DNA of 64,000 nt from a plasmid. Location of the stretch: sequence record NZ_CP033968.1; one strand, 5' to 3'. Position numbers and translations under genes: made by a program. Every line of letters starts with the position of its first letter. Position 1 is the stretch's first letter. A model generated the notes under the pieces. It saw nothing but the letters and a program-made list of their open reading frames with translations. It was not told where the DNA came from and made no database searches. Shown here in pieces: positions 3,619 to 50,623 of the stretch.

Positions 3619-3755
3619 GCCAACAGCGAGCAACGGTTTTCGGACTACCGCGGAGCGCGTCAGCGCCCGCGCTACAATCGGGCCTTCGGTCATCGCCTGC
3701 GGGCGCTGGACCGATGCAGTGCCATGAGCAACCGCCCGACAGGAAACCGAGCCTC

Positions 3756-4190
3756 ATGAACACGAACGAACCACAGCCACCAGCCTGGCAGCCGATCGCT
3801 GCGCTGCCGGTCATTCTGGATCTCGCCGGCGCGCAGATTGATGAGGTACAGGCCACCTTCGACGCCCTGACCCGGTGCCGGTCGCGACCCCATGTGCTTG
3901 ACGACGCCACCCTGGCCCGGACGCGCCAGGTCTACGGCGAACAACGGGATTTTCTGCCGATCCAGCGCGAGCAGGTGGCACGGTGGCGATCCGGGCCGCT
4001 CACACCGCAGGAGCGCGAAGCCCTTGCTCATCTGAGCGCGCGGATCGACCGGCTGGCGGCGCTGCTCGACGATCTGCTCGCGCTGGCAGACGAGCTGTCG
4101 CACGGCACGATCGACCGGATCATGGGCATGAGCGATGCGGACCTTGCCACTGCGGTGTTATCGGGCGCGCTCAGATTGCCGCAACGCTGA
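3756..4190 (+). CDS. Hypothetical protein between the accessory gene and tnpA.
   Basis: ORF with AGGAAAC RBS before the ATG at 3756. No recognisable domain. Confidence 0.4.
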   Translation: MNTNEPQPPAWQPIAALPVILDLAGAQIDEVQATFDALTRCRSRPHVLDDATLARTRQVYGEQRDFLPIQREQVARWRSGPLTPQEREALAHLSARIDRLAALLDDLLALADELSHGTIDRIMGMSDADLATAVLSGALRLPQR

Positions 4191-4241
4191 CAGGCGGAAA
4201 ATGCAGCAACGGTACCGGCTGGCTCGATTCGCGCGGCACCT

Positions 4242-7223
4242 ATGAACCAGATTTCCGAAACCGCGTACCCGTTACTGCCAGCGGAGATCACCGCAGACGA
4301 GTTGCGGGCAGTCTACACGCCCAGCGCCGCCGAAATCCGCTTCGTGTATGGCCAGTTCCGGCAAGCGCCAACACGCGTGCTGATTCTGACGCAGCTCAAA
4401 CTGCTTCAGCGTCTGGGATACATGCCGCCAATGTCAGACGTGCCACCCGAAATCGTCGCCCATATTTGCTCGGTGCTCAAGGTCCGATCGCCGCCCCGCA
4501 CGACAATCAAGCGCTATGACAGGTCGGGCAGCAAGTCTCGGCACCAGAAGGTGCTGCGCGAATTTGTCGGCATCCGCGTCGTTGATGCGCTTACCCATGA
4601 ATGGCTTGCTGTCGTCGCGGCCATCGCGGCGCGCACGAAGGCAGAGTTGCCGGACATCATCAACGTTCTGCTCGAAGAGCTCATCAGGCAGCGCTACGAA
4701 CTGCCGCCGCTGGCAACCCTCTCGCGCATTGCGGCTTCCGCCCGCAGCCGGCTTCACGAGACCATCTACCAGGCCTTCTCCGACGCGTTGGACGAACCGC
4801 TCAGAGCCCGCCTCGACGCTCTCTTCAGCAACCGGGCGGGACGCACGCCCTGGGACGAACTGAAGCGGGAACCAAAACGGCCGAGGCCGCGCGAGGTCGC
4901 AAGCTTCCTCAAACACATTCAGGCCTTGAACGAGCTGGCCGACGGCCTACCGCCGCCGCCGGAAATGCTCTCGGTCCCCAAGCGCATGCAACTCGTCCTT
5001 GAAGCACGGGCCCTCGACGTCCATGAGATGCGCATGCTCAAGCCGGCGAAGCGCTACACGCTTGCTGTGCTATTCATCCTCGCGCAGCTGCAGAAGGCAC
5101 TTGATGACGTCGCGGAAATCTTCATCAAGACGGTCCGCAACCTGGAAGGCACGGCGGAACTGCGCATGAAACAGTATCGGCTGGCGCACGCTGACGAGCT
5201 CGAATCGCTCGTCAGTCAGTTTCGCGATGTGCTCCACATCCTGCAAGACGACGAGGCGCCGCCCGCCGAGCGCATTGCGCGCATGAGGGCATCCCTCAAT
5301 GACGATCCCGGCAACGCCCTGAGCCGATGCAACGAGCACATCGCATATACCGGCAATCACGCCATCCCGTTTCTGCTGGCCCCATACAGGAATCTGCGGT
5401 CACTGCTGTTCCAGTGCCTCGATCTCCTGTCACTGCGCTCGAGCTCCCAGGACGATGCCCTGCTCGGCGCGCTCGCTTGGGTCCAGCAATACCGGGCCTC
5501 ACGTCGCGAATACCTGCTGCTGGGCGACGCCGACCTCGCAGAGCTGCCGCTCGACTGGATGCCAGAGAAGTGGGAGAAATTTGTCTTCCCGGACGGGCGG
5601 ACCGCCCGACTGCTGCACCGGAAATATTTCGAGTTATGCGTGTTCAGCCAGCTCAGGCGTGAACTCAACTCCGGGGACGTTTACGTCGAGCACAGCGACC
5701 AGTACGATGATCCCCGCGAACACCAGGTATCGTGGGACGAATTCCGCGAAGAACTGCCGCGCTATGGCGAACTCGTCGACTTCCCGGTCGATAGCCGGGC
5801 CTTCGTCCAGCAACTGAAGGACCAACTCAGCGCACTGGCCGACGAGGTCGACGCTGCCTTTCCGGAGAACGACTACGTCGAGATTGGCGACCAAGGTCTG
5901 ATTCTCCACAAGCTCGAGAAGAAGCCCGACCCGCCAAACAAGATGTTAATCGACCAGGCCATCACGGCGTCGATGCGGCCGGTCAGCATCCTTGACATCC
6001 TGACCGAAACCGAACAGTGGCTCGACCTGCACCGGCTGTTTGGCCCGTTATCCGGCTTCGAGGCGAAGATCGACGAGCCGCGCAAGCGCTTCATCACGAC
6101 GCTGTTCTGCTATGGGTGCAATCTCGGACCGGCGCAGACGGCGCGCTCGGTAAAGAACCTCAGCCGCAAGCAGGTCGCCTGGCTGAATCTGCGCCACGTG
6201 ACCGAAGAGCGCCTGGACAAGGCCATCGTCCGGGTCATCAACGCCTACAACCAGTTTGCGTTGCCGAAGTTCTGGGGTTCCGGAAGCCGAGTTTCGGCCG
6301 ACGGCACGAAATGGAATCTCTACGAGCAAAATCTGCTGTCCGAATATCACATCCGGTACGGCGGCTATGGCGGTATTGGTTACTACCACGTGTCGGACAA
6401 GTACATCGCGCTCTTCAGCCACTTCATTCCGTGTGGCGTGCATGAAGCCGTCTACATCCTCGACGGGCTGATCAAGAATACCTCCGACGTGCAGCCGGAC
6501 ACGGTCCATGGCGATACCCAGGCGCAGAGCGCGCCGGTCTTCGCACTCGCACACCTGCTCGGCATCAAACTAATGCCCCGCATCCGCGACATCAAGGAAC
6601 TGCGCTTCTACAAAGCGGACCGGCGCCGTCGCTACACCAACATCGAATCACTGTTCCGCGGCAACGTCGACTGGGCCCTCATCGAAAGGCACTTGTCGGA
6701 CATGCTGCGCGTCGCCATCTCAATCAAAGCCGGCCGGATGACGCCATCGACGATCCTGCGGCGCCTCGGCTCCGAGAGTGTCAAGAACAAGCTGTATTTC
6801 GCGTTCCGCGAGCTCGGGCGGGTAATCCGCACGCTGTTCCTGCTGCGCTACATCAAGGACCCCGAAATGCGCCGGACGATCCATGCCGCGACGAACAAGA
6901 GCGAACAGTTCAACGATTTTGCGAAATGGCTGATGTTCGGCGGTGACGTCATCGCGGAAAACGTCCGGCACGAACAGCGCAAAGTCATCAAGTACAACCA
7001 GCTCGTCGCGAACATGGTCATCCTCTACAACGTGCAGTGGATGTCGCGCAAACTGAAGGAGTTGCAAATGAAGGGCCATCCTGTCGACGCCGAGGTGCTC
7101 CAGGCGCTGTCGCCTTACCGGAAGGACCACATCAACCGGCTCGGGTCTTATTTGGTGGATCTCCAGCGGAAGGTGCCGCCGCTCGATACGTCGATCGATT
7201 TCGTTTTCGGATCGGCGGCATAG
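4242..7223 (+). CDS. tnpA: Tn3-family DDE transposase TnpA.
   Basis: 993 aa, the expected size. The conserved Tn3-family C-terminal DDE region is present (FALAHLLGIKLMPRIRDIKELRFYK ...). Confidence 0.9.
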   Translation: MNQISETAYPLLPAEITADELRAVYTPSAAEIRFVYGQFRQAPTRVLILTQLKLLQRLGYMPPMSDVPPEIVAHICSVLKVRSPPRTTIKRYDRSGSKSRHQKVLREFVGIRVVDALTHEWLAVVAAIAARTKAELPDIINVLLEELIRQRYELPPLATLSRIAASARSRLHETIYQAFSDALDEPLRARLDALFSNRAGRTPWDELKREPKRPRPREVASFLKHIQALNELADGLPPPPEMLSVPKRMQLVLEARALDVHEMRMLKPAKRYTLAVLFILAQLQKALDDVAEIFIKTVRNLEGTAELRMKQYRLAHADELESLVSQFRDVLHILQDDEAPPAERIARMRASLNDDPGNALSRCNEHIAYTGNHAIPFLLAPYRNLRSLLFQCLDLLSLRSSSQDDALLGALAWVQQYRASRREYLLLGDADLAELPLDWMPEKWEKFVFPDGRTARLLHRKYFELCVFSQLRRELNSGDVYVEHSDQYDDPREHQVSWDEFREELPRYGELVDFPVDSRAFVQQLKDQLSALADEVDAAFPENDYVEIGDQGLILHKLEKKPDPPNKMLIDQAITASMRPVSILDILTETEQWLDLHRLFGPLSGFEAKIDEPRKRFITTLFCYGCNLGPAQTARSVKNLSRKQVAWLNLRHVTEERLDKAIVRVINAYNQFALPKFWGSGSRVSADGTKWNLYEQNLLSEYHIRYGGYGGIGYYHVSDKYIALFSHFIPCGVHEAVYILDGLIKNTSDVQPDTVHGDTQAQSAPVFALAHLLGIKLMPRIRDIKELRFYKADRRRRYTNIESLFRGNVDWALIERHLSDMLRVAISIKAGRMTPSTILRRLGSESVKNKLYFAFRELGRVIRTLFLLRYIKDPEMRRTIHAATNKSEQFNDFAKWLMFGGDVIAENVRHEQRKVIKYNQLVANMVILYNVQWMSRKLKELQMKGHPVDAEVLQALSPYRKDHINRLGSYLVDLQRKVPPLDTSIDFVFGSAA

Positions 7224-7417: not shown

Positions 7418-8446
7418 GTTCAGGCTATCTGCGACGAGGCCAGGGTATGCCGGATCATCTGGCACAAAGCCACCACCGGTCCGTGACGAACGCACGACGA
7501 CGATGCCTTGCCCCATCGCCTTTTTGATGGAGGGGATGGCGCGCAGCGAAACACTACCGGCGCCTACACCTGAGGCAATGATGCCTTTGATGCCGTTGTT
7601 TGCTGCGGCTTCGTACATGAATCCGGAGTCACTTTGATAGTGCGCGATCACCGCGACTTCGGGCAAGACATCGAGTTTTGCGACGTCGAATGGCGTGGCT
7701 TTGGTGTGAGGCTTTGCCGTGGTGGTTTCGAAGTAGGGGACTTGATCGACCAGTGTTCCGAGGTAGCCCGCGTCCTGCCCCTTGAAGGTGTCCAAAGAAT
7801 TGGCATTGGTCTTCGTGACATACCGCGCAGCGCCAATACGATCATTCAACACGATCATGACACCGCGTCCGCGGGCAGACGGGGCTGCGGCGACCGTAAC
7901 GGCCTGGAGGATGTTACTGGGCCCATCCGCGCTAATCGCCGTCGAGGGGCGCATCGCGCCGGTCACGACCACCGGCTTGTCGCTCTTGACCACCAGATTC
8001 AGGAAGTAAGCCGTCTCCTCCAACGTGTCGGTGCCGTGTGTGATGACAACGCCGGCGATATCGGGCTGCGCCAGGAGGGCGTTCACGCGCTTTGCGAGTT
8101 TCAGGAGAATCTCGTTGGTCATGTTGTCACTGCCAACGTTTGAGATCTGTTCACCCGACACGCGTGCGACTTTTTCGAGCGATGGCACGGAACGAAGCAG
8201 CGCGTCGGCGGTCAGCACGCCAGAGGTGTATGCGGTCGTTTGGGTCTCGCTTGCGCCGGTACCCGCGATGGTGCCTCCCGTAGCCAGCACCGCCACACGG
8301 GGCAATGCAGCTTCTGTGGGCTGGGCATGCGCACCCGTCGAAAGCGTAGCGGCAAGGATGAAGCATTGAGTAATCAGCCAGCGAAAACGGCCTGGAAGGG
8401 TGCGTTGTTGTGTCACAGAGTGCTCCACTGATTTCAGTTTGAACAT
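7373..8446 (-). CDS. ansB: L-asparaginase II (periplasmic), C-terminally truncated and fused to transposon IR sequence.
   Basis: VAVLATGGTIAG, GVVITHGTDTLEETAYFLNL and the C-proximal GLVADSLN are all asparaginase-II motifs. The last ~30 aa expected after SLN (PQKAR...) are replaced by IR-encoded EGRPEFVKFSPKLP. Confidence 0.8.
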   Translation of the reverse strand: MFKLKSVEHSVTQQRTLPGRFRWLITQCFILAATLSTGAHAQPTEAALPRVAVLATGGTIAGTGASETQTTAYTSGVLTADALLRSVPSLEKVARVSGEQISNVGSDNMTNEILLKLAKRVNALLAQPDIAGVVITHGTDTLEETAYFLNLVVKSDKPVVVTGAMRPSTAISADGPSNILQAVTVAAAPSARGRGVMIVLNDRIGAARYVTKTNANSLDTFKGQDAGYLGTLVDQVPYFETTTAKPHTKATPFDVAKLDVLPEVAVIAHYQSDSGFMYEAAANNGIKGIIASGVGAGSVSLRAIPSIKKAMGQGIVVVRSSRTGGGFVPDDPAYPGLVADSLNEGRPEFVKFSPKLP

Positions 8447-8469
8447 GTCAATTGATTTGACACGCAGAC

Positions 8470-9237
8470 TCAGGCCAGTACGTGGCCCAGGAACTCGCGT
8501 GTGCGGGAGTCCTGCGGATCATCAAAAAATGCGTCCGGTTTGCCGTGCTCCACGATAAGTCCTTTGTCGGTGAAATAAATGTGGTGGGCCACTTCCCGGG
8601 CGAACCTCATCTCGTGGGTCACGAGGACACAGGTCATGCCTTCCTGCACCAGCTCTCGGATCGTGATCAGGACTTCTTTGACGGTCTCGGGATCCAGTGC
8701 TGCAGTGACTTCGTCGAACAGCATTACACTAGGCCGCATGGCCAATGCTCGTGCGATTGCCACGCGTTGCTGTTGCCCGCCCGAGAGGTGGCCGGGGTAG
8801 GCGTTCTCTTTGCCAGTCAGTCGGACTTTTGCAAGCAGCGTCATGGCGCGCTCGCGGACTTCGTCGGGGCGCTGCTTCAGAACCTGGACGGGCGCAAGCA
8901 TGATGTTCTCGAGCACCGTCATATGAGGGAAGAGGTTGTACTGCTGAAACACCATGCAGACGTCCTTGCGCAAGGCAATGCGTCTCGCACTGTCGGAAAG
9001 GTCATGGACCCTGTGCCCCGCGGCATAGATCTCGCCGCTATCCGGCTGAACGAGACCATTGATGCAGCGCAGCAACGTCGACTTGCCGGAACCCGATGGC
9101 CCAATCAGCGCCACGGCTTCCCCTTTGCCCACGGTCATCGAAACGCCCTTGAGCACCTGATTTGCGCCGAATGCCTTCGTCACGCGGTCGACTTTCACGA
9201 TGGTCTCGCGAGTATTGTTAGTCACGAATGTCTCCAT
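8470..9237 (-). CDS. Polar amino-acid ABC transporter ATP-binding protein (GlnQ/GltL-like).
   Basis: Walker A GPSGSGKST, signature LSGGQQQRVAIARAL, Walker B MLFDEVTAALD. Confidence 0.9.
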   Translation of the reverse strand: METFVTNNTRETIVKVDRVTKAFGANQVLKGVSMTVGKGEAVALIGPSGSGKSTLLRCINGLVQPDSGEIYAAGHRVHDLSDSARRIALRKDVCMVFQQYNLFPHMTVLENIMLAPVQVLKQRPDEVRERAMTLLAKVRLTGKENAYPGHLSGGQQQRVAIARALAMRPSVMLFDEVTAALDPETVKEVLITIRELVQEGMTCVLVTHEMRFAREVAHHIYFTDKGLIVEHGKPDAFFDDPQDSRTREFLGHVLA

Positions 9238-9246
9238 TTTTATGTG

Positions 9247-10014
9247 TCATGCCACGGCGAAGCGGGCTTCGAGCCGTCTTGTCCAGCGCGCAATGGGCGC
9301 GCAATAGGCAAAGAAGAGAATGAGGAGGAGCCCATACACAGGCATGAGGAGTGCCGGGCTGTTCTCAGCCGACAACACGGCCCGTGCCACGGTCACGCTA
9401 TCCTCGACGCCAACGATGGACACCAGCGGCGTGGCCATCATCAGGATGGCGTAGACGTTCATCCAAGGGGGAACCATCCGCTTGACGGCCTGGGGCAACA
9501 CCACCAGACGAAGAATCTGCCAGCGGCTCAACGCCAAGGAGTCCGCGGCCTCCCACTGGCCGGAAGGAATCGACTGAATGCCGCCACGCACCACCTCGGA
9601 GACGTTCCCCATGACCGGTAGTGCAAGACCAATGATGCCTTTGGCCCAGCCAGGAAAGGGTATGTCCGTGCCCAAGAGCGTGAACTGGTTGGGGAGCAGT
9701 AAGACGCAGAAAAACAGCAGGACGAGCCATGGCGCATTGCGGAAGAACTGCGTCACCCACTGTGAAGCGACTCGAAGCTGGCGACGCTGCGCGATCTGCC
9801 CCAGTCCCAGCCCTGCGCCGAGGAGGGTTCCGATGGCCATCGATGCCGCGCTGATGCCTACGTCGACGGCGAAGCCTTGCAGGAGTAATGGGAGCCACTT
9901 GCCCAGCGCCGCGGCGCCGGCCTCACCATCCTTTGCCAGGGCGGAACCTGCGTAGGCCGAGAGCGCGAGCGCCGGCCACCATTTTGACGTTGCACACTTC
10001 ATGTATGGGCTCAT
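9247..10014 (-). CDS. Amino-acid ABC transporter permease (His/Glu/Gln/Arg/opine family).
   Basis: Multi-TM protein with the EAA-like permease loop. Sits in the operon with the ATPase. Confidence 0.8.
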   Translation of the reverse strand: MSPYMKCATSKWWPALALSAYAGSALAKDGEAGAAALGKWLPLLLQGFAVDVGISAASMAIGTLLGAGLGLGQIAQRRQLRVASQWVTQFFRNAPWLVLLFFCVLLLPNQFTLLGTDIPFPGWAKGIIGLALPVMGNVSEVVRGGIQSIPSGQWEAADSLALSRWQILRLVVLPQAVKRMVPPWMNVYAILMMATPLVSIVGVEDSVTVARAVLSAENSPALLMPVYGLLLILFFAYCAPIARWTRRLEARFAVA

Positions 10015-10748
10015 GCTTTTCCCCAGCCAGGTACTGCGACGGCATGCTCGATCCTGTGCATCAGCCAGGTGAAAACGCCAATAACGGCGATGTAGAAGAC
10101 GAGGAGAAAGACCATCATCTCCAGCGCGTTCAAGCTTTCTGACCAGATTTGCGAGGACGCATAAAGCAGCTCAGGCACGGCAATGGCGAAGGCGTTGGTC
10201 GACGTCTTGATCAGGTTCACCAGGTTGTTATTCAGGCCGGCGAAGCTGATGCGCAACGACAGCGGCAGCACCACCTTGCGAAACGTCTGACCCTTGTTCA
10301 TCCCAAGTGCATCGGCTGCTTCAAGCGTAGAGTTGGGGACGGCCTCCATGCCAGCACGAAAGATTTCCACGTTGAACGCACCGGCATAGAACGTCAGCGA
10401 GACGATCGCCCAAGTTACGTTGCTCAGGACGGGGGAGGTGCCGCCGAGCAAACCGGTTAGCGCAGGGCCCAGCGCAAAGTAGAAAAAATAGAGCTGGACA
10501 AGCGGGGGCGTGTTTCGGAAAGCCTGCACGTAGAGGTCGACGGCACTCCTGGCGAATTTTCCACCCGAAAACTGGAGGTAGGCGCCGATCGCCCCCACAA
10601 CCAGGCTTCCCACGATCGACGCCACCGACAGCCAGGCGGTGTAGCGTATGCCCTGGAGAAGAAGCTCCTTGTCGAACTGGTCGTAAAAGAACGAGAAATT
10701 GATGCCTTGAGTGCTGTTTAGGCCGCGAAAGAGTTCTGCGATGTCCAT
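10011..10748 (-). CDS. Amino-acid ABC transporter permease (second subunit).
   Basis: Multi-TM permease. Its stop overlaps the downstream permease start by 4 nt. Confidence 0.8.
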   Translation of the reverse strand: MDIAELFRGLNSTQGINFSFFYDQFDKELLLQGIRYTAWLSVASIVGSLVVGAIGAYLQFSGGKFARSAVDLYVQAFRNTPPLVQLYFFYFALGPALTGLLGGTSPVLSNVTWAIVSLTFYAGAFNVEIFRAGMEAVPNSTLEAADALGMNKGQTFRKVVLPLSLRISFAGLNNNLVNLIKTSTNAFAIAVPELLYASSQIWSESLNALEMMVFLLVFYIAVIGVFTWLMHRIEHAVAVPGWGKA

Positions 10749-10756
10749 CTTGCCTC

Positions 10757-12133
10757 CTAGGCGTGCGCAGCTGGTCGCAGAAGATCGCGCGCTTCAGGCA
10801 GACTGGCTATGCTCATCAGCCGATCCCACAATGCCTCGCGGCCAGAAGCTTCCAGCACTTGCGCCGTGCAGTCCTTGAACTTCGTGCACAAGGTGTCGAT
10901 CGACGCGGGCTTTTGGGGCATGCCTTCGGCCGCAAGAATGGTCTCGCTGTAGCGTTCGCCGTTGGCGAGCGTAATTTCAACGCTGGCACCTTCCGGATAG
11001 TCTGCCCGCTCGCGCGGATCCACGAGTTCCGCATCGGCAATCATTTCGATGTGCGTCATCAGAACGCGAAGTCGTTCGTCGCGCAGCGTTTCCATATTGA
11101 GATGGTTGATAGAGACCGGCCCGTACAACAGCGCGCAGGCGATCGCGAACGTCATCGAGAACTGAGCTTCTGACGGCGCCGTCGGTTCCAGATATGGCAG
11201 GCAGCTAGCGGCCAGCGGCGTGGTTCGACAACGGATCCGGACGATATCGGCGACACGCGGTCGCAAGGTGGTGGCAATCATCAGCGTGGCCTCGATCGCG
11301 GCCTGAGTCGCGGAGCACAGGGGGTATAGCTTGAAAGCGATTCCTGGTGAAATCAGTGCAAAGCGGGTTCCAAGTCCGGCGATGGCGTCTTCATGAAACC
11401 GTCCGCCGTTCACCGTATTAATGAAGCCGAAAGCGTGATGTGTGGTATTGGTGCTCCCCGCGATGCCGGCCTTGGCCGCAAGCGCCATCTCGACGCCCAG
11501 TCGGGCTGCCATACCGCAGAGGAACGGTTTGCCGGTGGAGCCGTGTGTCGCGCGCAGCCCCAGGGGAATGTTCATCGAGAGACGAATGGCGTTCGCGACT
11601 TCCTCCACGCCTAAACCGTAGAGCTTGCAAGCCCCGACGGTCGCCCCCAGGATGCCCAACGTCGCCGTCGTCCAGTGTCCGCGGGCGTACAGCGTCTCGG
11701 TGAGCGCCAGGCCCAGGGTGTACTCGACTTCGGCTGCACAGATGAACGCTTCCAGCAGTTGGCGGCCGTTGGCACCGATTTCCTCGGCGACAGCCAAAAC
11801 GGCAGGAAGTATGACGGCAGACCCATGGACGATTCCAGCGTAGCTTGTGTCGTCAAAGTCCAGGACATGCGAGGCCACTGCATTCAGGTACGCTGCTGAC
11901 GGTGCATCAGCAGTCGCGCCCGTGCCGATAACCGTGCAACCGCCTTGATGAAATCCAGTGCGGGAACAAAGGCCGTAGGTCTCAGTGCGCGACCCGGCGT
12001 GAGCGACGCCCATGACGTCTGCAATACATAGCGTGGCTGCGCCGATGGCGCCTGCCGGTGCTTGATCGATGGAGAAACGGTGTACCCATCGGGCGATGGT
12101 CGTTTCCAGGTCCATTTGGTCGGCTTCCAGCAT
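10757..12133 (-). CDS. MmgE/PrpD-family protein (2-methylcitrate dehydratase superfamily). Start reassigned to MLEADQ.
   Basis: The N-terminal MmgE/PrpD pattern (ARWVHRFSIDQAPAGAIGAATLCIADVMGVAHAGS) runs through the whole length. The start was chosen so the gene abuts rather than overlaps the upstream binding-protein gene. Confidence 0.75.
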   Translation of the reverse strand: MLEADQMDLETTIARWVHRFSIDQAPAGAIGAATLCIADVMGVAHAGSRTETYGLCSRTGFHQGGCTVIGTGATADAPSAAYLNAVASHVLDFDDTSYAGIVHGSAVILPAVLAVAEEIGANGRQLLEAFICAAEVEYTLGLALTETLYARGHWTTATLGILGATVGACKLYGLGVEEVANAIRLSMNIPLGLRATHGSTGKPFLCGMAARLGVEMALAAKAGIAGSTNTTHHAFGFINTVNGGRFHEDAIAGLGTRFALISPGIAFKLYPLCSATQAAIEATLMIATTLRPRVADIVRIRCRTTPLAASCLPYLEPTAPSEAQFSMTFAIACALLYGPVSINHLNMETLRDERLRVLMTHIEMIADAELVDPRERADYPEGASVEITLANGERYSETILAAEGMPQKPASIDTLCTKFKDCTAQVLEASGREALWDRLMSIASLPEARDLLRPAAHA

Positions 12134-12135
12134 TG

Positions 12136-12960
12136 TCACTTTCCTGCAGCCAACTTCGTCTGGTTTTCCTTCAGGAACTCGGTGGGCTTGAGACCCCACT
12201 TCTTTTCCTCTTCGATCAGATAGCCGCTTGCGTGCCACTGTGTCACGGTCTTGCGTACGAAGTCGCCGTATGCCGTGTTGAGTTCACCGATGGGGACAGC
12301 GATTGCCCAGGGTTGAAGGTCCTGAACGGGCAACGGCGTCGTGTAGTCATTCCACTTCGCTTCGCCGCTTGAAATGATGGAGGCCAGGAGGGTGCTGTCC
12401 TGCACGAAGCCGACGCAGGAGCCCGTCAACAAGGCGTTCAGTGCTTCGACGTTCCCAGGGAATGCCACGATGTTCGCCCCGTACTTCTGCGCCACTGCCC
12501 GGTTGTAGTACGCGCCTTGCGTGCCACAAATGTCTTTGCCTCGGACATCTTCCCAAGTCTTGATGCCGGCGGACTTTCGGGCGAGCAGGCTCGTCCCGCC
12601 TGCGTAATAGAAGGGCTCGATGACGCCGACCACTTTCCGACGTTGGTCGTTGACCGACATGGTGGCAATCATGAGATCGATGCGGCCTTGCTGCAGGAAC
12701 TCGATGCGGTTGGCGGTCTGGACCGGAACCAGTTCCAGCTTTACCTTCAGTTTCTGCGCCAGATCTGCAGCCAAGTCCGGTTCCAGGCCAACGACGGCAC
12801 CCTTCGGATCGAGGTACCCGAACGGTTTGTAGTCGGTCTTCACGCCAACGCGTAGCACACCGGAGTTCTTAATACGATCCAGCGCGGGGCTTTGTGCATA
12901 GGCCTGAACCACAGTCAAAGCGGACAGGGCGGCGGTTGCCCATACGATCAGTTTCCTCAT
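12136..12960 (-). CDS. Periplasmic amino-acid-binding protein of ABC transporter (family 3 SBP).
   Basis: Signal peptide (MRKLIVWATAALSALTVVQAYA), then the SBP_bac_3-like fold (LRVGVKTDYKPFGYLD ...). Confidence 0.85.
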   Translation of the reverse strand: MRKLIVWATAALSALTVVQAYAQSPALDRIKNSGVLRVGVKTDYKPFGYLDPKGAVVGLEPDLAADLAQKLKVKLELVPVQTANRIEFLQQGRIDLMIATMSVNDQRRKVVGVIEPFYYAGGTSLLARKSAGIKTWEDVRGKDICGTQGAYYNRAVAQKYGANIVAFPGNVEALNALLTGSCVGFVQDSTLLASIISSGEAKWNDYTTPLPVQDLQPWAIAVPIGELNTAYGDFVRKTVTQWHASGYLIEEEKKWGLKPTEFLKENQTKLAAGK

Positions 12961-14008
12961 TGTCTTGTCTCCTTTTTTAATACCGCCAGAATGGCGGTGC
13001 GCTGTCGCGCGGTGTCAGGCGGCAGGCAGGGCGGATCGAAGCACAATGGCGTTGATCGGAGGCCGGAAAATCTGCCGCGTGATTTCAGTTTATGGGCTGT
13101 TGCATAAGCCAAGGGCGGTCGGCGTCCCGTATCAGGAAATCTAATACTGGCTAGCTGCAAGGCGTGCTAGTGGGGGAGGTCAATGCGGGTTTACCGAATT
13201 GGTGGATTCCCTATCTGATAGGAGGGTCACGGCAAGCACGGCTGCGCTTCCTGCGTGGTGCATAAGGCGGTGGGGGATTTTGGGGTCAGCGTGTGAGTAG
13301 ATTGCGCTCAGGGTGGCAGGTCTGAATGGGCAAGCGCGACCTCGGAATTCTCCCTATCCGACGTGGGTGGGTGGAAGAAGTTGCCTAGGATATTGAACGA
13401 GTAAACCTTGGCGGTAGACCGCCAGCGGAAGGTGAGGGCCAATGTTGGACTGTGTCCCCCTGTCCCGTTAGGCACCCGGCAGGTCTGCAAAGGGCGCGTT
13501 GATCCGCGAGAGGTTGGCGACCGCGCCTTTGAATGCAGGGTTCAATCGACATCCGGGAAGAGGCGTGCTTGCGTCCGGTGTTCTCTGCCGACGTCAGAAG
13601 CCGGGCAGGGGCACGAGCGGCGGCATTTTTCCCAAAGCAGGCCAAAACGCGAGAAGGGCGGGTGCCGAGAGATCGAAATCGATCTTTGCTTTTCGCTGGA
13701 ATAAGGCGAGCTGCATGATGGGCATTGAGGCGATGTGGCGAAACTGTCCTTCTAGAGTATGCGCCAGTAGGCCATGTCAAGTGCGCGTTGTCCTGTGCAA
13801 CAGCGTGGGATGCGATCCTTCTACCATGGCAGGGTGCATTTGCTTCGCCGAGCTTTTGCAGGGAACAGGAAGACGCCGTGGCGCCGCGGTCTGGGCTAAC
13901 CCGCGCTTCGCACTACCTGATCTGCAGGATGATCCAGCGCCAGCCGTTCATGCTTGACCTCGTCACCATGAACGGCAATACGACGATCGCGGATTTCGAA
14001 TACTGGCG

Positions 14009-15028
14009 TTACGTCGATGCGCTGCCGGCGGCCTGAAGCGGTGCGCTGCCCGCGGGCACCGGACTGGCATGGGTGACGTAGTGGATTGCCTGCAGCACCC
14101 CGTCGACCGAAGGCGGTGCGCCGTTATCGCCGACCGACACCGACTGGCCTGGCTTGTTGACGCCAAAATGCGGACGCGATGTCGCGGTGAACAGCATCAC
14201 CGTTGGCTTGCCAAGCGCGTCCGCCAGATGCACGAAGCCGGTGTCCATGCCGACAACCAGTGACGCCGCGTCGACGCGCTGCGCACACTCGGTGATCGAC
14301 ATGCGGGGCAGCACCTCGGCGCCGGGGATGGCCGCAGCCAGCGCCTGGGCTTCCTGCTGCTCCTTCTGCGAGCCCCAGGGCAACTGCACGCGATAGCCGC
14401 GCCGGGCCAGCTGATGCCCAACTTCCACCCAGTTCGCCTGTGGCCATTTCTTGATTTCGAGTGACGTCGCGTGGAACAGCAGCGCACGTGGCACGCCGTC
14501 GGCATTCAGCGGCGTGGCCGGTGCCGGCACCCGAAGCTCGGCCGTTTCGTGCGGCTCGATGTCGTAGCCCAGCGCGTTGGCCACCACCATGCGCATTTTC
14601 TGCCGGCAGTTGGCATCGCCATGCGGCCCGAAAATCTCGGTGTAGGCGAACACCGCCTTTGCTTCGCCAAGGAACTCGGCGGCATAGCCGAGGCGCCGCT
14701 TTGTCCGGGCGAGCCTGGCCGCAATGGCACTCTTGTAGACACCGTGAACGTCAATGGCCACGTCATAGCGCTCGCGGCGCAGCGACATCAGTGCGCTGAA
14801 TATGCCGCGCAGGTCGCGCCATTTGCGGCCATTCTTCTTGAACTGGCGCAGGGGCGGCGCAATGACACGATCGACGCCTACCGCCCAGTTGGGGATATCC
14901 GCGCACGACGCGTCGGCAATCCAGTCGATTTTGGCTTCCGGATAGGCGCGCCGCAGGTCGTACAGCAGCGGCAGGGTATGCACCATGTCGCCAAGCGACG
15001 TGATCTTGATTACCAGGATGCGCTTCAT
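14009..15028 (-). CDS. ADP-heptose:LPS heptosyltransferase (glycosyltransferase family 9). Start reassigned to MKRILVIK.
   Basis: N-terminal MKRILVIKITSLGDMVHTLP is the GT9/WaaC/WaaF hallmark. C-terminal GMDTGFVHLADALGKPTVMLF. Confidence 0.8.
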   Translation of the reverse strand: MKRILVIKITSLGDMVHTLPLLYDLRRAYPEAKIDWIADASCADIPNWAVGVDRVIAPPLRQFKKNGRKWRDLRGIFSALMSLRRERYDVAIDVHGVYKSAIAARLARTKRRLGYAAEFLGEAKAVFAYTEIFGPHGDANCRQKMRMVVANALGYDIEPHETAELRVPAPATPLNADGVPRALLFHATSLEIKKWPQANWVEVGHQLARRGYRVQLPWGSQKEQQEAQALAAAIPGAEVLPRMSITECAQRVDAASLVVGMDTGFVHLADALGKPTVMLFTATSRPHFGVNKPGQSVSVGDNGAPPSVDGVLQAIHYVTHASPVPAGSAPLQAAGSAST

Positions 15029-15861
15029 GCGGGGGACGGCTTGATTGAGCGAGCGCGGCCGGATCTGCCCGCGGCGGGCCAGTATGCCCCAGGCCGCCGC
15101 TCCAGCGCGTGACAATTGCGTAATGAACGACACACTCTCAGCTCGCCATTCGGCCCTGCGTCGAGCGGGCCGTTGGCGCGTTGTTTACAGGGCAGGCTGG
15201 TCCGGTCAAAAAGTGCGTACTTCGGTATTGCGCTTCGTACCCTTGGTAAGCGTTGGCGTCGCCATCCGCAGAATGCGCCTCTGCAGACCGCGACAAGGCC
15301 GGAGCCTACCGGCAGTTTTCCGAATTGTTCACTATCGTGCCTCCGGAGACTCCTCGCCGTGAAAGGCATTGCGCTTCCATTGGGCGCGAGGTTGCTGCAC
15401 CCAAAAAGGCTCACTCGAAAATTCCTGCCTTGCCCCTGGACGGGTTGGCGGGCGACGCCGCCTTCAAAATGCGCCTGGACACGCCGCACTCCCCAAACCC
15501 TTCTATATATAGAGGGCGGGAAACTCGCCGGCGCAGTCGTCGCGCCGCCCGCCGCCCGCCTCCCTCGTCGGCCCGTCATCTCGCGCAGCATCGGCATCGG
15601 CGGGCTGAGGTTGGCGCGATCCCCGTCTCAAACTAAATGGGCACACTTGCAAAATGCCTCATAAGGTACTTTTCGTGCCAGTCCCCGCCAAAAATGCACT
15701 TTTTATGTGTGCATGATAACTACACTTATCAAGCATAGAAAAAATAAGGTACGGGTCACCTAGTATCCCGCACAGGGCAGGGCCTATAATGTGACCCATT
15801 CGCGCGTGACCCGCGCCGGCGCTGGGCTGGCGGGTGGCAGCGCCCACCGACCCTGAACCAC

Positions 15862-17136
15862 ATGGACCGCGATCCCGACACTCTGCAGCAGGTCACCCAA
15901 TCCCACCTGGAGGCCGCCGCCGACGCATGGCAGGCGGGCGAGCGGGTCCCCGGGCTGGCGTCACATTCGCCGTGGGAGGCGCTGATCGCGGGGCAGTGGT
16001 ATCCGAACAAGGCCATTCTGGCGCTCGCGCACCGCCTGGCGGGTTTCGGCGACCTCACGGCAAAAACGCTGGCCGGCGCCGCCGTCCGCCGGCGACTGGT
16101 GGCGCTGGATATCCCGCTGCGGAATGCCAGACAGGAGACGAGCTCCGACACGCGTCCGGATTGGTCGCGGCTCCAGGCGCACCACGTGGAAGCCGGCGCC
16201 GCCGAACTGTCCCGGGAACTGGAACACTTGATCTCGATAAAACAGATTGCCCACAAGCCGCACGAGACCGGCTGGCGGGTAGGCGTGAATGGGCTCTGGA
16301 TCGGGCCATATACGCTTGGCACCGCGGCCTGTGACGTGGCGGGGCTGCGTTTCGAGCGGGAGATGACACCCGTCGAATATGCGCAGTACCGCGCGCACCT
16401 GGAGTCGCTCGGCTTTCCGGTGAAACGTGGCCGGACACCGACCCGCACCAAACCCACCTGGGGCGCCGGCGAATTGCGCGCCGCGGCAGCGGCGCTGGTC
16501 GGGAGGGATCTTGAAGCCGCAGACGCCGCCGAAGGCGAAAGCGAACCGCTCCAAGTGGTCCTGGACGGCCGGGCGTACCCAGCGTCCGACCTGCTCGGTC
16601 TGCCGGCCGGCCAAACGCCCTCTGCGCAAGACCTGACCGCGATCGCCGAAGCCGGGGGCGCCTTGCGTGCCGCTCCTGACCCTGTTGACGACGCGCTGGA
16701 AGCCTTGGCCGCCCAGAGCGGGTTGCCCACGGAAGCGGCGCGTCAGGTGCGGGGCCGGATCGGGCAGGGACGGTTCCGCGACGCGCTGCTCCAGGTCCAC
16801 GGCCGCTGCGTCCTGACCGGCATCGCGACCCCGGCCGTCCTGCGCGCGGCGCACATTCATCGCTGGGCGGACTGCGCCGACACACCGACCGCCCGCCACG
16901 ACATTGACAACGGCCTGCTGCTGGCCGCGAACCTCGACTGCCTGTTCGAGACCGGGCTGATCGCCTTCCACGACGACGGCCAGATCCTGATTTCACCCGA
17001 ACTGGACGAAGCCGCGCGTGACGCGCTGGGCCTCAGACCGGAACTGCGGCTGGCGGTCGTACCATCGGCTGGCCAGCGCGGTTACCTCGCCAAGCACCGC
17101 GCACGCACCCGGGCCATGCGCGGGGCTTCGGCATGA
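15862..17136 (+). CDS. HNH endonuclease-domain protein (C-terminal HNH_2-type domain) with a ~290-aa N-terminal region of unknown function.
   Basis: C-terminal GQGRFRDALLQVHGRCVLTGIATPAVLRAAHIHRWADC ... DIDNGLLLAANLDCLFETGLIAF matches the HNH (PF13391-like) nuclease motif. Its stop overlaps the integrase start (ATGA). Confidence 0.65.
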   Translation: MDRDPDTLQQVTQSHLEAAADAWQAGERVPGLASHSPWEALIAGQWYPNKAILALAHRLAGFGDLTAKTLAGAAVRRRLVALDIPLRNARQETSSDTRPDWSRLQAHHVEAGAAELSRELEHLISIKQIAHKPHETGWRVGVNGLWIGPYTLGTAACDVAGLRFEREMTPVEYAQYRAHLESLGFPVKRGRTPTRTKPTWGAGELRAAAAALVGRDLEAADAAEGESEPLQVVLDGRAYPASDLLGLPAGQTPSAQDLTAIAEAGGALRAAPDPVDDALEALAAQSGLPTEAARQVRGRIGQGRFRDALLQVHGRCVLTGIATPAVLRAAHIHRWADCADTPTARHDIDNGLLLAANLDCLFETGLIAFHDDGQILISPELDEAARDALGLRPELRLAVVPSAGQRGYLAKHRARTRAMRGASA

Positions 17137-19277
17137 CGGCGCCGGCGACTGCCGTCGATACGCCCCTGCGGCGACGCCGGTCCGTCACGCGCCGGCAGCT
17201 GCATCGCGGACACTTCGGGTTCCTGCGGGCCATCATCCAGGGGCTGCACGCGCGGGCCATGTGGGAACGCTATCTGATGGAGGAGGGCGAGATCGAGGCC
17301 GATCAGGAGTTGCTGGCCCGATCCCCGGAGGGCGAGGAGAGCGAGGCGGCCAACGACGAAGCGGATCCCGCCGCCCGCGCGTTCGCCACCCACCCCAAGG
17401 TCCGCCGGGTCACGGCGTGGCTGCGCAGCGAGCTCATCGCTGCGGCAACCCGGGCCCAGCGCCCCGGTACCGCCCGCCGTTTGAAGCTGGAAGCCCGGGA
17501 CCTGCGGAAGATCGGCCAGAAGGGGCTGGGCCTGCCGTCGCTCGAGGAATTTGTGGCCGAGACCGGCATGGACGGCTTTGGCGAGTCCGAGCAACTGGCC
17601 GCCTACGAGGAGCGCTATGGCAACGCCCTCAAACGGGAATCCAAGCGCGCCAGGATGATGCGTCGCCAGCTCGAGGCGATCGACTGGCTCGAAGAACGGT
17701 ACGCCCAGCCCGTCCTCGCCGGCGACGCTTGCCGGGCGTGGCTGGCCGAGCCCCTCGCGGAGCGCCTGGAGGCGGCCGGGGCCCTGACGCTCGCAGATCT
17801 GCTCGATCGCATCGATGGACTGGGCACCGGCTGGGCCCGCGGCCTGCCAGCGATCGGCGCCGGCAAGGCAAGGGCGATCGAAGCCTTCCTGGCCACCCAC
17901 GCCGAGACGCTGGGCCGGGTGATCGGCAACCACGTGGCGGTGCCGCGCAGGAAGCGTTATGCGCATGAGATGGCCACGGTCGTTCCCCGCGGCAAGGAAA
18001 ACGCCCTGGTCCCGCTCGACAAGCTGCTGCTGCCCGCCCATCTGGACGGTCGGGACGGCGCCTACCGCCTGCCGCAGGCCCGCTGCCTCATCAACGCCCA
18101 CAACGACTACGAAGCCGTGCTGTCCTGGCTCCGGTCCAAACCCGGCCTGGCGCCGGATCGGATCTTGCGCCTGCGGGAAAAGCGCAAGGATGTCGGCACA
18201 GGGCAGGGGCCCTACGACTGGCTGCATTACCTGTCGAATACCCAGCGCGCGTACCGGAAGGAGGCGGAGCGCTTCCTCCTGTGGTCGATGTTGGCCCGCG
18301 GGAAGCCCCTGTCCTCCATGGACACGGACGATTGCATGGCCTACCGGGACTTCCTCGCCGACCCGCCGAAGGAATGGTGTGGCCCGCGCTCGCGGGAACG
18401 ATGGACACCCCTGTGGAGGCCTTTCGAGGGACCGCTCAATCCCCGTGCCCAAGGCTACGCGATCGGTGTGCTGACCAATCTCTACACCTACCTGAACGCC
18501 AAGAACTACCTGGCGGGCAACCCGTGGCAGGGCATCCACGTGCCGACGAGCGCCAAACCCGAACTGGACGTCAGCCGCAGCCTGACCGAAGACCAGTGGG
18601 CCTTCGTCAAAGGGTGTCTCGCCCGCCTGCCGGCGACGTCCATCCATCGCCGGTTGCAGGTTGCCTTGCCCCTGCTGTACGCGACGGGCCTGCGCCTGTC
18701 GGAGCTGGTCGCCGCCAGCACGGATGACCTGGAGTGGGTGAGCCTCGCCCAACCCGGTACCGGCGAGCGGGAGGAGGGCTGGTGGCTCACGGTGATCGGC
18801 AAGGGAAACAAGCTGCGCCGCGTGCCGGTACCGGACGCCACGGTCAACGCCTTGGGCGGGTACCTGGAATCGCGCGGATTCGCCAGTGATCCTGCCCGGT
18901 GCCGCGGGGTGGCGCTGCTAGGCCACGCAACCGACCAGGTCGAACGGGCAGGGGGCTGGGCAAAGGTGGACATGGCTCCCGCCGAGGCAGGATTGGCGGC
19001 AACCACGTTGTACCGGCAGATCAAGCGGTTCTTCCAGGCCTGTGCGACCGAATTGGAAGCGGTCGACGCCCGGGGCGCTGCGCGCCTCGCGGCAGCCAGC
19101 ACGCACTGGATGCGGCACACCCATATTTCCCATGCATTGGCCGCTGGCGCACCGCTCGAGGCCGTCAAGCAAAACGCGGGGCACGCATCGCTTGATACCA
19201 CCACCCGCTACGTCACGACCGAGGACGCCCGCCGCCGAGCTGCAATGAGGAAGTTCTGGGATTCGCAATCAACGTAA
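17133..19277 (+). CDS. int: Large tyrosine recombinase/integrase (714 aa) with an N-terminal extension containing a helix-hairpin-helix-like region.
   Basis: The C-terminal half parallels the first recombinase (GKPLSS..D...Y..FL; YLAGNP; catalytic ASTHWMRHTHISHAL ... GHASLDTTTRYV). The N-terminal ~280 aa are extra (LTLADLLDRIDGLGTGWARGLPAIGAGKARAIEAFL). Confidence 0.8.
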   Translation: MTAPATAVDTPLRRRRSVTRRQLHRGHFGFLRAIIQGLHARAMWERYLMEEGEIEADQELLARSPEGEESEAANDEADPAARAFATHPKVRRVTAWLRSELIAAATRAQRPGTARRLKLEARDLRKIGQKGLGLPSLEEFVAETGMDGFGESEQLAAYEERYGNALKRESKRARMMRRQLEAIDWLEERYAQPVLAGDACRAWLAEPLAERLEAAGALTLADLLDRIDGLGTGWARGLPAIGAGKARAIEAFLATHAETLGRVIGNHVAVPRRKRYAHEMATVVPRGKENALVPLDKLLLPAHLDGRDGAYRLPQARCLINAHNDYEAVLSWLRSKPGLAPDRILRLREKRKDVGTGQGPYDWLHYLSNTQRAYRKEAERFLLWSMLARGKPLSSMDTDDCMAYRDFLADPPKEWCGPRSRERWTPLWRPFEGPLNPRAQGYAIGVLTNLYTYLNAKNYLAGNPWQGIHVPTSAKPELDVSRSLTEDQWAFVKGCLARLPATSIHRRLQVALPLLYATGLRLSELVAASTDDLEWVSLAQPGTGEREEGWWLTVIGKGNKLRRVPVPDATVNALGGYLESRGFASDPARCRGVALLGHATDQVERAGGWAKVDMAPAEAGLAATTLYRQIKRFFQACATELEAVDARGAARLAAASTHWMRHTHISHALAAGAPLEAVKQNAGHASLDTTTRYVTTEDARRRAAMRKFWDSQST

Positions 19278-21306: not shown

Positions 21307-22497
21307 ATGGAGCAACTTGCACAGGTTTTGAGGCAGATCGGGGACCTGCCCCAGATGGAATCGCCGGAACTCAACTTCTACGCGGTTGGCGGCGCGGGGT
21401 ATTTGGAGAACCCTACGTCCGACCTGATGGCTCTTTTCATGGGTGCGGAACCACAAGCGCCGCGATGGCTAGCAAAAGCACTTCTATCGTGTCTCGCAAA
21501 TAGAGGCCTGGCTGAAGGGATCATAGTCGAGTCGGTCGACTGGGACGGCGTTACCGCTGAACGGGAAGTTGCCCAGACCGATCAAGAGAGTGATTCTGTA
21601 AAACGCCTTGATCTCGTGATTTCTGACGGGGACTTCGTTCTGGGCATCGAGAATAAGGTCTACGCCACCGCACGCGGAAACCCGTTCCACGTTTACGACC
21701 GGCTGCTTGCTGAACGCGCAGCCGGTGGGCCAATTATCAAATGCGTACTCCGCCCGACCGATAGGACCTCCGATGTTCCATTGGGATGGCCGGTGGTCAC
21801 CTATCCCGATCTCGTGAAGACAGCGCTCGATCTTCTAGGCCAGGAATTCGTTCGGGCACCGGTATCAAAGTGGCACTTTTTCTACAGAGAATTTCTCAAC
21901 CACCTAGAGTCACTCGCCAACCCAGAGAGCGGCACCATAATGTCAGACGCAGCATTCAGCTTTGCCCTGAAAAACTTCCATGCACTTAGCCAGGCCGCCG
22001 ATCTCCTAGGCGAGTTCAAATCGCAGCTTGAGCACGATGCCACGGCACGCGTGCGAGAACGTCTATCGGCTATGACACTAGAAGGGTCCGTCGCGCTGAC
22101 TTCGAAACAGCAGGTCTGGCGATCCCTTAACCAGCATGTAGTCGAGATTTATCCTGCTAGCTGGGGAAAATATTCGAAGGTGGTACTGGCTTATGGTGAA
22201 GATGAAACGGATGAAGATCATGCGCTGTACTTCTACGTTCTCGGCTACATCAGCTTCGGTACCGAAAAGCAAAGCATCGAAGAGATCAAACAAAGGTTTT
22301 ACGCCGACACGAAGAACGAAGTCAGTTCATGGCGTACCCACTCGGACCCGGCAGACAATTTGTTTGAGGAGGGTCGATCGACCAAGTATCTCGGAATCAG
22401 CGGCATGCCCAAGGATGCGACGCTGAGCGGGGCGTTGCAAGCGCTGGAAGACCTTGCAGCCTGGATGCAGCAGTTTGTATTCACCCCGGCGCAATGA
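21307..22497 (+). CDS. PD-(D/E)xK nuclease-superfamily protein (396 aa) with the nuclease motif in the N-terminal third.
   Basis: Canonical motif RLDLVISDGDFVLGIENKVYA (D ... D/E-x-K) at residues ~100-125. Confidence 0.5.
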   Translation: MEQLAQVLRQIGDLPQMESPELNFYAVGGAGYLENPTSDLMALFMGAEPQAPRWLAKALLSCLANRGLAEGIIVESVDWDGVTAEREVAQTDQESDSVKRLDLVISDGDFVLGIENKVYATARGNPFHVYDRLLAERAAGGPIIKCVLRPTDRTSDVPLGWPVVTYPDLVKTALDLLGQEFVRAPVSKWHFFYREFLNHLESLANPESGTIMSDAAFSFALKNFHALSQAADLLGEFKSQLEHDATARVRERLSAMTLEGSVALTSKQQVWRSLNQHVVEIYPASWGKYSKVVLAYGEDETDEDHALYFYVLGYISFGTEKQSIEEIKQRFYADTKNEVSSWRTHSDPADNLFEEGRSTKYLGISGMPKDATLSGALQALEDLAAWMQQFVFTPAQ

Positions 22498-45648: not shown

Positions 45649-45701
45649 AATTCATAACACGTACTTGTAATAACGTTCGCAAACTTTCACCTCGAATCGA
45701 C

Positions 45702-48368: not shown

Positions 48369-48408
48369 GTTACGAAGATTGCATATCGTCGAAGCAGCCC
48401 GTGGTGTC

Positions 48409-50610: not shown

Positions 50611-50623
50611 GGGAAACGGTCTC

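Follow-up and report, generated by a model that had tools for sequence, protein, structure and literature searches.

The closest described relatives of the locus considered here are site-specific recombination systems on the one side and Type IV restriction endonucleases on the other. In the TnpR subgroup of simple tyrosine recombinases, a helix-hairpin-helix (HhH) domain, DUF3701, precedes the core-binding and catalytic domains (PMC8138268). Tn3-family transposons can carry toxin-antitoxin genes between res and the resolvase gene, and these are thought to be controlled from the res promoters (PMC7157771). For the Type IV enzyme VcaM4I (EVE-HNH), mutagenesis identified H224, N241, D250, and D254 as essential, the metal ligands being Asp residues (PMC7897488), and ScoMcrA, which has the domain order head-SBD-SRA-HNH (SBD, sulfur-binding domain), contains a "head" domain, ScoMcrA_N, without known function (PMC6224610). 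Here, we describe a 64,000-nucleotide stretch of plasmid DNA (record NZ_CP033968.1, in the following called the window) in which the gene of an HNH_2 endonuclease directly precedes that of a long tyrosine recombinase. An earlier reading of the sequence (the original prediction) had described the two as a coupled unit and had proposed several roles for the HNH protein.

With a probability of roughly 60%, we regard this region as a recombination module for plasmid maintenance with a passenger gene of the defence type. The recombinase would act at a 28-bp inverted repeat just 5′ of its own operon; its most likely job, suggested by the location on plasmids beside partition and replication (par/rep) genes, would be the resolution of plasmid multimers or cointegrates, and as a side effect it would exchange the DNA to the left of the site among related plasmids. 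The 424-aa endonuclease would be an autonomous enzyme of the Type IV restriction kind, in which sensor-like N-terminal domains are joined to a nuclease of the VcaM4I/ScoMcrA type. It would occupy a facultative cargo slot between the site with its leader and the recombinase gene, without being needed for recombination; owing to this position, it would be transcribed, in this lineage probably also translationally coupled, and inherited with the recombinase.

With XerCD/dif-cer, XerH/difH, Cre/loxP, and ResD/rfsF, the locus shares the Xer-like fold of the recombinase, a single inverted-repeat site next to the recombinase gene, and the placement in a plasmid maintenance region, and the 28-bp site has the 11-bp arms and the 6-bp spacer of dif. 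It departs from these systems in having one large recombinase with extra N-terminal domains. As in TnpR of Tn4401, DUF3701 precedes the core-binding and catalytic domains, but the 714-aa recombinase exceeds TnpR by about 300 aa, has a conserved helical N terminus (residues ~21 to 185), and adjoins no Tn3-family transposase; its family lies beside plasmid partition and replication genes instead. The nearest tnpA is 10 kb away and has a short recombinase of its own. The nuclease has a C-terminal linker and HNH_2 domain homologous to those of VcaM4I and ScoMcrA, with the catalytic residues H/N/D/D(E), and its N-terminal domains are of the ScoMcrA head type (PF26345 on orthologues); in common with Type IV enzymes, it is encoded by a single gene without methyltransferase and occurs in defence-island-like contexts. 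Unlike VcaM4I and ScoMcrA, it has no EVE, SRA, or sulfur-binding domain but three tandem head-like domains, and its gene is embedded in a recombinase operon. For the arrangement as a whole, the closest analogy would be the toxin-antitoxin placement in Tn3-family transposons, where the passengers likewise lie directly 5′ of the resolvase gene, near site and promoter, and are inherited with the module. Here, however, the passengers are defence-type enzymes (HNH, KAP, and HipA in one relative) rather than toxin-antitoxin pairs, the host is a plasmid backbone rather than a transposon, and the recombinase is of the tyrosine type and the DUF3701 class.

The gene pair lies in a plasmid backbone

The window belongs to a pMOL30-like Cupriavidus megaplasmid, with 93% overall identity to pMOL30 of C. 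metallidurans CH34 and five sister plasmids. Both open reading frames start with ATG (Table 1) and overlap by the tetranucleotide ATGA at positions 17133 to 17136, in agreement with the original prediction. The same pair with the same 4-nt ATGA overlap is present on pMOL30 (WP_011229411 and WP_011229412), where the products are annotated as "HNH endonuclease signature motif containing protein" and "phage integrase family protein." For comparison, a wider sample of loci (L numbers) was drawn from metagenome contigs and plasmids, a single-protein scan of genome contigs having given five loci. The stop/start overlap was not specific to the HNH gene, as genes located 5′ of this recombinase family tend to overlap or abut the recombinase gene: the junction is ATGA behind a KAP NTPase gene in L003, TAATG in L016, an 8-nt overlap in L009, and a 7-nt gap in L001.

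Genes for ParA, ParB, and a Rep3 initiator, an IS66 element, and a Tn3 element were also found in the window; about 16 kb, which include IS66 and other genes, separate the recombinase module from parA. No tRNA gene was detected in the 64 kb. The pMOL30-type context, the par/rep genes, and the absence of a tRNA gene identify the region as plasmid backbone rather than a chromosomal island. The G+C content falls from approximately 0.70 between 16 and 19 kb to approximately 0.56 between 19 and 30 kb.

The 714-aa protein is predicted to be an Xer-like tyrosine recombinase

Searches against Pfam assigned DUF3701 (PF12482; E = 4e-19) to residues 186 to 273 and Phage_integrase (PF00589; E = 1.7e-13) to residues 503 to 698, and NCBIfam gave sub-threshold Xer-like matches only. 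In an alignment with 34 relatives, residues R521, K557, H658, R661, H684, and Y693 were invariant throughout; the catalytic pentad R-K-H-R-H and the tyrosine nucleophile are present. The AlphaFold model (predicted local distance difference test [pLDDT], 79) is all-helical over the N-terminal 290 residues, and its C-terminal half matched XerA, XerD, XerH, Brujita Int, and Cre in a fold search. TnpR of Tn4401 shares 34% identity with residues 233 to 707. Judged by its residues, the protein belongs to the DUF3701 "TnpR subgroup" and is an Xer-like tyrosine recombinase whose catalytic residues are intact.

The form with approximately 700 residues represents a large family, with 1,123 matches among the candidates scored, and the N-terminal extension is kept from about residue 21 throughout. 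A second recombinase in the window, of 394 aa, is present as the original prediction had stated and shares 32% identity with residues 305 to 703 of the long one; it lacks the N-terminal 300 residues, and the extension is thus confined to one of the two proteins, although as a family-wide trait it is not peculiar to this one.

Coverage of at least 80% of the recombinase was reached by 163 plasmid records and by no record among 50,697 from phages. The relatives are mostly encoded on Burkholderiales plasmids, typically beside parA-parB-rep. Specifically, the gene order is recombinase-ParA-ParB-Rep3 in Ralstonia (L096 to L101) and recombinase-ParA-ParG-like-TrfA in a Cupriavidus lineage (L102 to L107), and par/rep genes also adjoin relatives on pBC25416 of B. 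cepacia and on Acidovorax and Hydrogenophaga plasmids.

Two further observations concern this family. A gene of the HU family, whose product might be an architectural cofactor, recurs a few kb 5′ of the recombinase gene in several plasmid lineages (Table 1). The gene of a distant relative (L058; 39% identity, G+C content of 0.72) follows a full-length metE gene at a distance of 54 nt, and this locus yielded no core site.

A conserved 28-bp inverted repeat is a candidate crossover site

A 28-bp inverted repeat with 11-6-11 geometry, GTGCATGATAA-CTACAC-TTATCAAGCAT, is located 126 nt 5′ of the HNH start codon and approximately 50 bp upstream of a TATAAT hexamer. It is the only match in the 64-kb window, where 0.09 matches were expected. 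When all fetched loci were scanned, one such site was found 5′ of the recombinase operon in about 50 of them, with recombinases 31 to 94% identical, against a chance expectation of about 0.02 per locus. The inner TGATAA/TTATCA of the arms is invariant, and the 6-bp spacer is freely variable; at the outermost three positions of the arms, which the search pattern did not include, the bases are complementary at 1.65 of 3 positions on average versus 0.75 by chance and show symmetric co-variation. As far as its bases tell, an 11-6-11 repeat with a variable spacer is the anatomy of an Xer/Cre-type core site.

The synteny between related plasmids breaks at this repeat. The window and plasmid BS1 p1 are 100% identical over positions 8001 to 15735 (7,735 nt), the last identical base falling within the right arm, and diverge thereafter. 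BS1 p1, in turn, corresponds to pMOL30 from the right arm onward, but with the spacer and the left flank of the window; the three-way comparison consequently places a crossover within the 28 bp. Between the window and pMOL30, synteny breaks exactly at the core site. From position 19095 onward, the window is again 100% identical to pMOL30 and BS1 for at least 12 kb, leaving a divergent allelic patch of 3.36 kb (66 to 94% nucleotide identity) that has the core site as its left boundary and runs from the right edge of the site through the leader and the HNH gene across most of the recombinase gene. As the patch is divergent within identical flanks, these elements were evidently replaced together by another allele. 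In the evolutionary sense, the coupled unit of the original prediction is therefore real, being compact, encoded on one strand, and co-inherited; what did not hold is the constancy of the partner across the recombinase family, as described below. Seen from the recombinase gene, the variable DNA is found beyond the site. Similarly, one recombinase (P0041) is encoded as an identical protein on three contigs (L102, L104, and L107) with three unrelated left flanks, and the homology among these contigs begins abruptly at a perfect palindrome, GTACATGATAA-GTCTGA-TTATCATGTAC. The 28-bp repeat is thus probably a crossover site, and its conservation together with the synteny breaks suggests that the recombinase cuts there.

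The core is flanked by two copies of the direct repeat ATAAGGTAC, one 40 nt to the left and one directly to the right, the latter (15744 to 15752) contained in the longer motif ATAAGGTACGGGT. Similar AAGCAC/AAGGTAC-TTT motifs are kept in left flanks that are otherwise unrelated, and AAA.TAA.GTACG is invariant in nine aligned leaders, including those of Ralstonia loci in which the recombinase gene comes first. From their position and conservation, the ATAAGGTAC copies might serve accessory binding or form part of a promoter. The TATAAT hexamer is a putative -10 box on the evidence of CCTATAATGTGAC, which is conserved in the eight leaders of the Cupriavidus clade, with either HNH or KAP as the first gene; in two of these, L003 and L002, it is degenerate, and the Ralstonia leader that precedes the recombinase gene directly lacks it. 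Overall, the leader, consisting of the core site, AAA.TAA.GTACG, CCTATAATGTGAC, and a GC-rich stretch, is kept whichever gene comes first, and transcription would start within it.

The position between site and recombinase gene is occupied by different genes

An HNH_2 gene is located 5′ of the recombinase gene in the window, on pMOL30-type plasmids, in L001, L002, and L009, and in strains EM10, USMAA2-4, USMAHM13, and HN-2. It is the only gene in the slot in the window, pMOL30, L002, L009, and three further Cupriavidus plasmids, and follows a gene for a KAP-family NTPase in L001 and EM10. In L003 and L016, the KAP gene stands alone, its stop codon overlapping the start codon of the recombinase gene, and in the P0041 lineage (L102 to L107) a KAP remnant comprising only the first 70 codons is left. 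The KAP P-loop NTPase matches the PADLOC defence candidate PDC-S20 and, more weakly, QatA and PifA. In more distant relatives, the slot holds a protein of about 220 residues, HipA (one relative), an AAA ATPase, or nothing; where it is empty, the site lies 0 to 140 nt from the recombinase start. The 220-aa protein, without Pfam match, is encoded directly 5′ of the recombinase gene in ten metagenome loci of a clade with about 49% identity and looks like a second, clade-specific occupant. Across about 60 loci, the slot is thus variable or empty, and the expectation that the HNH partner is conserved beside this integrase family was not borne out: outside one Cupriavidus plasmid clade, other genes or none take its place.

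Conversely, HNH orthologues of the same architecture with 52 to 56% identity stand alone on Paraburkholderia chromosomes, on metagenome contigs, and on a mobile element, and in five of the six contexts sampled outside the Cupriavidus plasmid clade the long recombinase does not accompany them. Among their neighbours are BrxC-like, FRG, SMODS, or AAA_21 genes, or else a serine recombinase, an SNF2 helicase, and a methyltransferase. From this distribution, it appears that neither the nuclease nor the recombinase needs the other, and the variable slot together with the orthologues lacking this recombinase makes a role of the HNH protein in recombination directionality or targeting, as had been proposed, unlikely.

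The 424-aa protein resembles Type IV nucleases

The C-terminal part of the protein contains an HNH_2 domain (PF13391; E = 1.1e-10, above the gathering score) at residues 316 to 370. The last approximately 150 residues match the linker helix and HNH domain of VcaM4I (PDB 6yex), with E = 1e-14 for the single sequence and 7e-28 for the profile. Residues H331, N350, D359, and E363 align with H224, N241, D250, and D254 of VcaM4I and are invariant in 18 family members; the catalytic residues are hence intact, and a loss of His or Asn, which would have spoken against a nuclease, was not seen. A suspected loss of the last HNH histidine (C or A in place of H in NLD[C/A]LFE) was dismissed, as the metal ligands in VcaM4I are Asp residues.

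For residues 1 to 275, the periodicity of the secondary structure in the AlphaFold model and hhalign comparisons indicate three tandem copies of an α/β domain of about 90 residues (domain 1 versus 2, P = 99%, E = 5e-18; domain 1 versus 3, P = 89%, E = 2e-6). On HNH orthologues, this domain is recorded as PF26345 ScoMcrA_N, which is a weak assignment. Nothing matched this region in Pfam, NCBIfam, PDB sequence, or fold searches, including a PDB profile search, and no recognised modification-reader domain (SRA, EVE/PUA, SBD, winged helix [wH], etc.) was found in the protein in these searches. With the whole model, the best Foldseek matches were VcaM4I and ScoMcrA, both Type IV enzymes and both weak (1.6e-3 and 0.14), and none covered the N-terminal domains. 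The N-terminal region is rare, with 15 cluster representatives in 1.84 billion.

Between the window and pMOL30, the ratio of non-synonymous to synonymous substitution rates (dN/dS) is 0.28 for the HNH gene and 0.08 for the recombinase gene, the protein identities being 75% and 94.5%, respectively; within the HNH protein, identity ranges from 55 to 60% in the middle domain to 97% around the active site. The HNH gene changes about five times faster than the recombinase gene at non-synonymous sites. By its dN/dS, the nuclease gene is under purifying selection, that is, functional but fast-evolving. Its relatives retain the nuclease and swap N-terminal domains, a pattern typical of defence nucleases. 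The operon contains no methyltransferase gene, and the orthologues are solitary in the five other contexts. Among the options listed for this protein in the original prediction, a defence component gives the best fit; by analogy with its closest matches, the enzyme would restrict modified foreign DNA.

Other features of the window and of the compared loci

The short recombinase is part of a probable Tn3-family transposon that also comprises two or three small open reading frames and a Tn3 DDE transposase. Downstream of the long recombinase, a gene within a low-GC (0.55 to 0.58) block of hypothetical genes encodes a PD-(D/E)XK_4 nuclease that matches the PADLOC defence candidate PDC-S26 (E = 4e-44). 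Further to the right, a cyclic di-GMP (c-di-GMP) signalling cluster is followed by a divergent gene pair for a protein similar to 5′-3′ exonucleases and the N-terminal part of DNA polymerase I (Pol I) and for a PAPS-reductase-domain protein. The latter matched neither DndC nor another curated family, and a link of the ScoMcrA-like nuclease to this gene as dndC was rejected, no Dnd match being found.

Table 1. Positions of features in the window and, where an L number is given, in compared loci
Feature	Position	Strand	Remarks
Probable Tn3-family transposon	1353-7223		
Short recombinase, 394 aa	1353-2537	−	32% identity to long recombinase (residues 305-703)
Tn3 DDE transposase (tnpA)	4242-7223		
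Direct repeat ATAAGGTAC, left copy	15661..15669	+	repeat search; putative accessory binding motif
28-bp inverted repeat, 11-6-11	15709..15736	.	candidate core recombination site, dif/lox-like
Divergent allelic patch, 3.36 kb	15736..19094	+	66-94% nucleotide identity to pMOL30/BS1; flanks 100%
Motif ATAAGGTACGGGT	15744..15756	+	directly right of core; contains right copy of ATAAGGTAC
TATAAT hexamer	15785..15790	+	putative -10 box in shared leader
HNH_2 endonuclease gene, 424 aa	15862..17136	+	1-275, three ScoMcrA-head-like domains; ~275-420, linker helix and ββα-Me HNH
Long tyrosine recombinase gene, 714 aa	17133..19277	+	helical N terminus 1-185; DUF3701/HhH 186-273; core-binding domain; catalytic 503-698
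Low-GC block of hypothetical genes	19.3-30 kb		
PD-(D/E)XK_4 nuclease	21307-22497		PDC-S26 match
ParA, ParB, Rep3 initiator	35.7-40.5 kb		
c-di-GMP signalling cluster	43051-51643		
GGDEF-EAL proteins	43051-45648 and 45702-48368		second with dCache and PAS domains
HDOD protein	50624-51643	−	c-di-GMP cluster
5′-3′ exonuclease/Pol I N-terminal-like	51501-52592	−	divergent pair, 51501-53838
PAPS-reductase-domain protein	52630-53838		divergent pair, 51501-53838
HU-family genes	L006 (pMOL30) 9036-9479; L014 3772-4050; L096 1190-1582; L104 4526-4969		5′ of recombinase
KAP-family NTPase	L001:7054-8538; L003:8433-9929; L016:4541-5965; L102:7647-7877		remnant in L102
~220-aa protein	L020-L025, L022, L031, L034, L064, L080		e.g., L020:5234-5902
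Distant recombinase relative	L058:3267-5624		downstream of metE

Discussion

The best reading of the pairing is that it is specific to its lineage, with the nuclease as facultative defence-type cargo of a recombination module whose role would be resolution, indirectly supported by the evolutionary crossovers at the site. A genomic island within the plasmid, with the recombinase as its integrase, the 28-bp repeat as attL or attP, and the HNH gene and the low-GC downstream genes as cargo, is unlikely. It would account for the drop in G+C content right of 19 kb, the defence-like PDC-S26 gene downstream, the synteny break at the site, and the one relative that abuts chromosomal metE, but the 64 kb contain neither a tRNA gene nor a second copy of the site, so that no attL/attR pair or tRNA target was found, and on many plasmids the recombinase gene adjoins parAB/rep. 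Moreover, the low-GC block is backbone that is 100% identical to pMOL30, whereas the divergent part is the recombinase module itself, and the variable DNA lies on the non-recombinase side of the site and not on the cargo side. An integrase of a Tn4371-type integrative and conjugative element, considered because of a TTTTTAT motif and "int" annotations, was rejected since Rep3/ParAB genes are present, transfer genes are not found nearby, and the relatives lie by par/rep. Distinctly unlikely, too, in our view is an HNH protein that assists the recombinase, in the Cupriavidus clade at least, as a directionality, targeting, or nicking factor by which recombination at the 28-bp site would be stimulated or biased. 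The ATGA overlap with the shared leader, the recurrence of HNH_2 genes 5′ of the recombinase in about nine distinct Cupriavidus plasmid alleles, and the co-inheritance of site and both genes as one allelic patch would be expected of such a partner; yet recombinases with 69 to 76% identity have a KAP NTPase or its remnant in the slot, Ralstonia relatives (59%) have an empty slot, the same nuclease architecture is solitary elsewhere, and the faster non-synonymous change and the N-terminal swaps of the HNH protein fit defence genes rather than a co-adapted partner.

That the HNH protein is a homing-type or otherwise selfish nuclease, or an addiction module, promoting its own spread or retention, is quite improbable. 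In favour of this reading, many homing endonucleases have an HNH fold, the gene is located in a hotspot of recombination, and equivalent or adjacent positions in relatives are taken by toxin genes (HipA, VapC, and RES). Against this, HNH_2 is a Type IV/McrA-like subfamily, the region corresponding to the auto-inhibitory linker of VcaM4I is conserved, the plasmid backbone offers no intron, intein, or phage context and no adjacent antitoxin or immunity gene, and orthologues occur in neighbourhoods resembling defence islands. Very improbable, finally, is a palindrome that serves as transcriptional operator only, with synteny breaks produced by ordinary recombination: its upstream position, with some 50 bp to the conserved TATAAT and about 126 nt to the initial ATG, would suit an operator, and resolvase sites commonly double as operators, but an 11-6-11 repeat with a free spacer has the geometry of Xer/Cre-type core sites, the breaks in independent comparisons fall at the repeat or a few bases from it, with one crossover between spacer and right arm, and the arms are kept across recombinases down to 31% identity.

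Several points nevertheless weigh against a maintenance module with a restriction-type passenger. The assignment of the recombinase to the site and to multimer resolution comes from comparisons of sequences and gene neighbourhoods. Known resolvases are half as large as this protein, and no function is assigned to residues 1 to 185; the palindrome might serve as an operator, either in addition or in place of a crossover site; and as L058 abuts a chromosomal metE gene, some relatives may be chromosomal or integrative. A promoter/terminator scan gave no sigma-70 consensus promoter and no plus-strand terminator, and co-transcription accordingly rests on gene spacing and the conserved leader. As for the nuclease, its N-terminal domains match no characterised modification reader, so that the term "modification-dependent" would apply by analogy, and the AlphaFold model is poor in the HNH core, with pLDDT values below 50 at residues 311 to 338. 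Finally, about 9 of the 12 alleles in the Cupriavidus plasmid clade do have HNH_2 upstream, and a clade-specific functional link is possible.

A bolder extension of the maintenance-module reading can be drawn, which we hold to be doubtful. The 28-bp site, the leader, zero to three passenger genes, and the long DUF3701 recombinase might form a distinct and widespread platform of betaproteobacterial plasmids on which genes for defence and toxins (HNH nuclease, KAP NTPase, HipA, and unknown families) are captured, exchanged, and placed under recombinase-controlled expression. Such passengers would fire upon plasmid entry into a recombinase-free cell, the recombinase N terminus would read accessory motifs such as ATAAGGTAC, and the triple-head HNH proteins would be a new class of sensors of invader DNA.

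Neither protein is of a new kind. What seems not to have been described in the searchable literature, where just two papers mention DUF3701, is the conserved 28-bp site with its crossovers, the slot for defence genes in a plasmid recombinase operon, and the HNH architecture with three head domains. For a large uncharacterised recombinase family of more than 1,100 proteins, annotated only as "phage integrase family protein," the analysis offers a concrete candidate site and role. The position between a plasmid resolution site and the recombinase gene would be a recurrent lodging place for defence-type genes, by which a pattern known from toxin-antitoxin pairs of Tn3 transposons would extend to nucleases and to plasmids, and the HNH enzyme with its three ScoMcrA-head-like domains is a candidate for a new restriction specificity. 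In the annotation of metal-resistance megaplasmids of the pMOL30 type, "maintenance recombinase plus passenger nuclease" would take the place of "island integrase."

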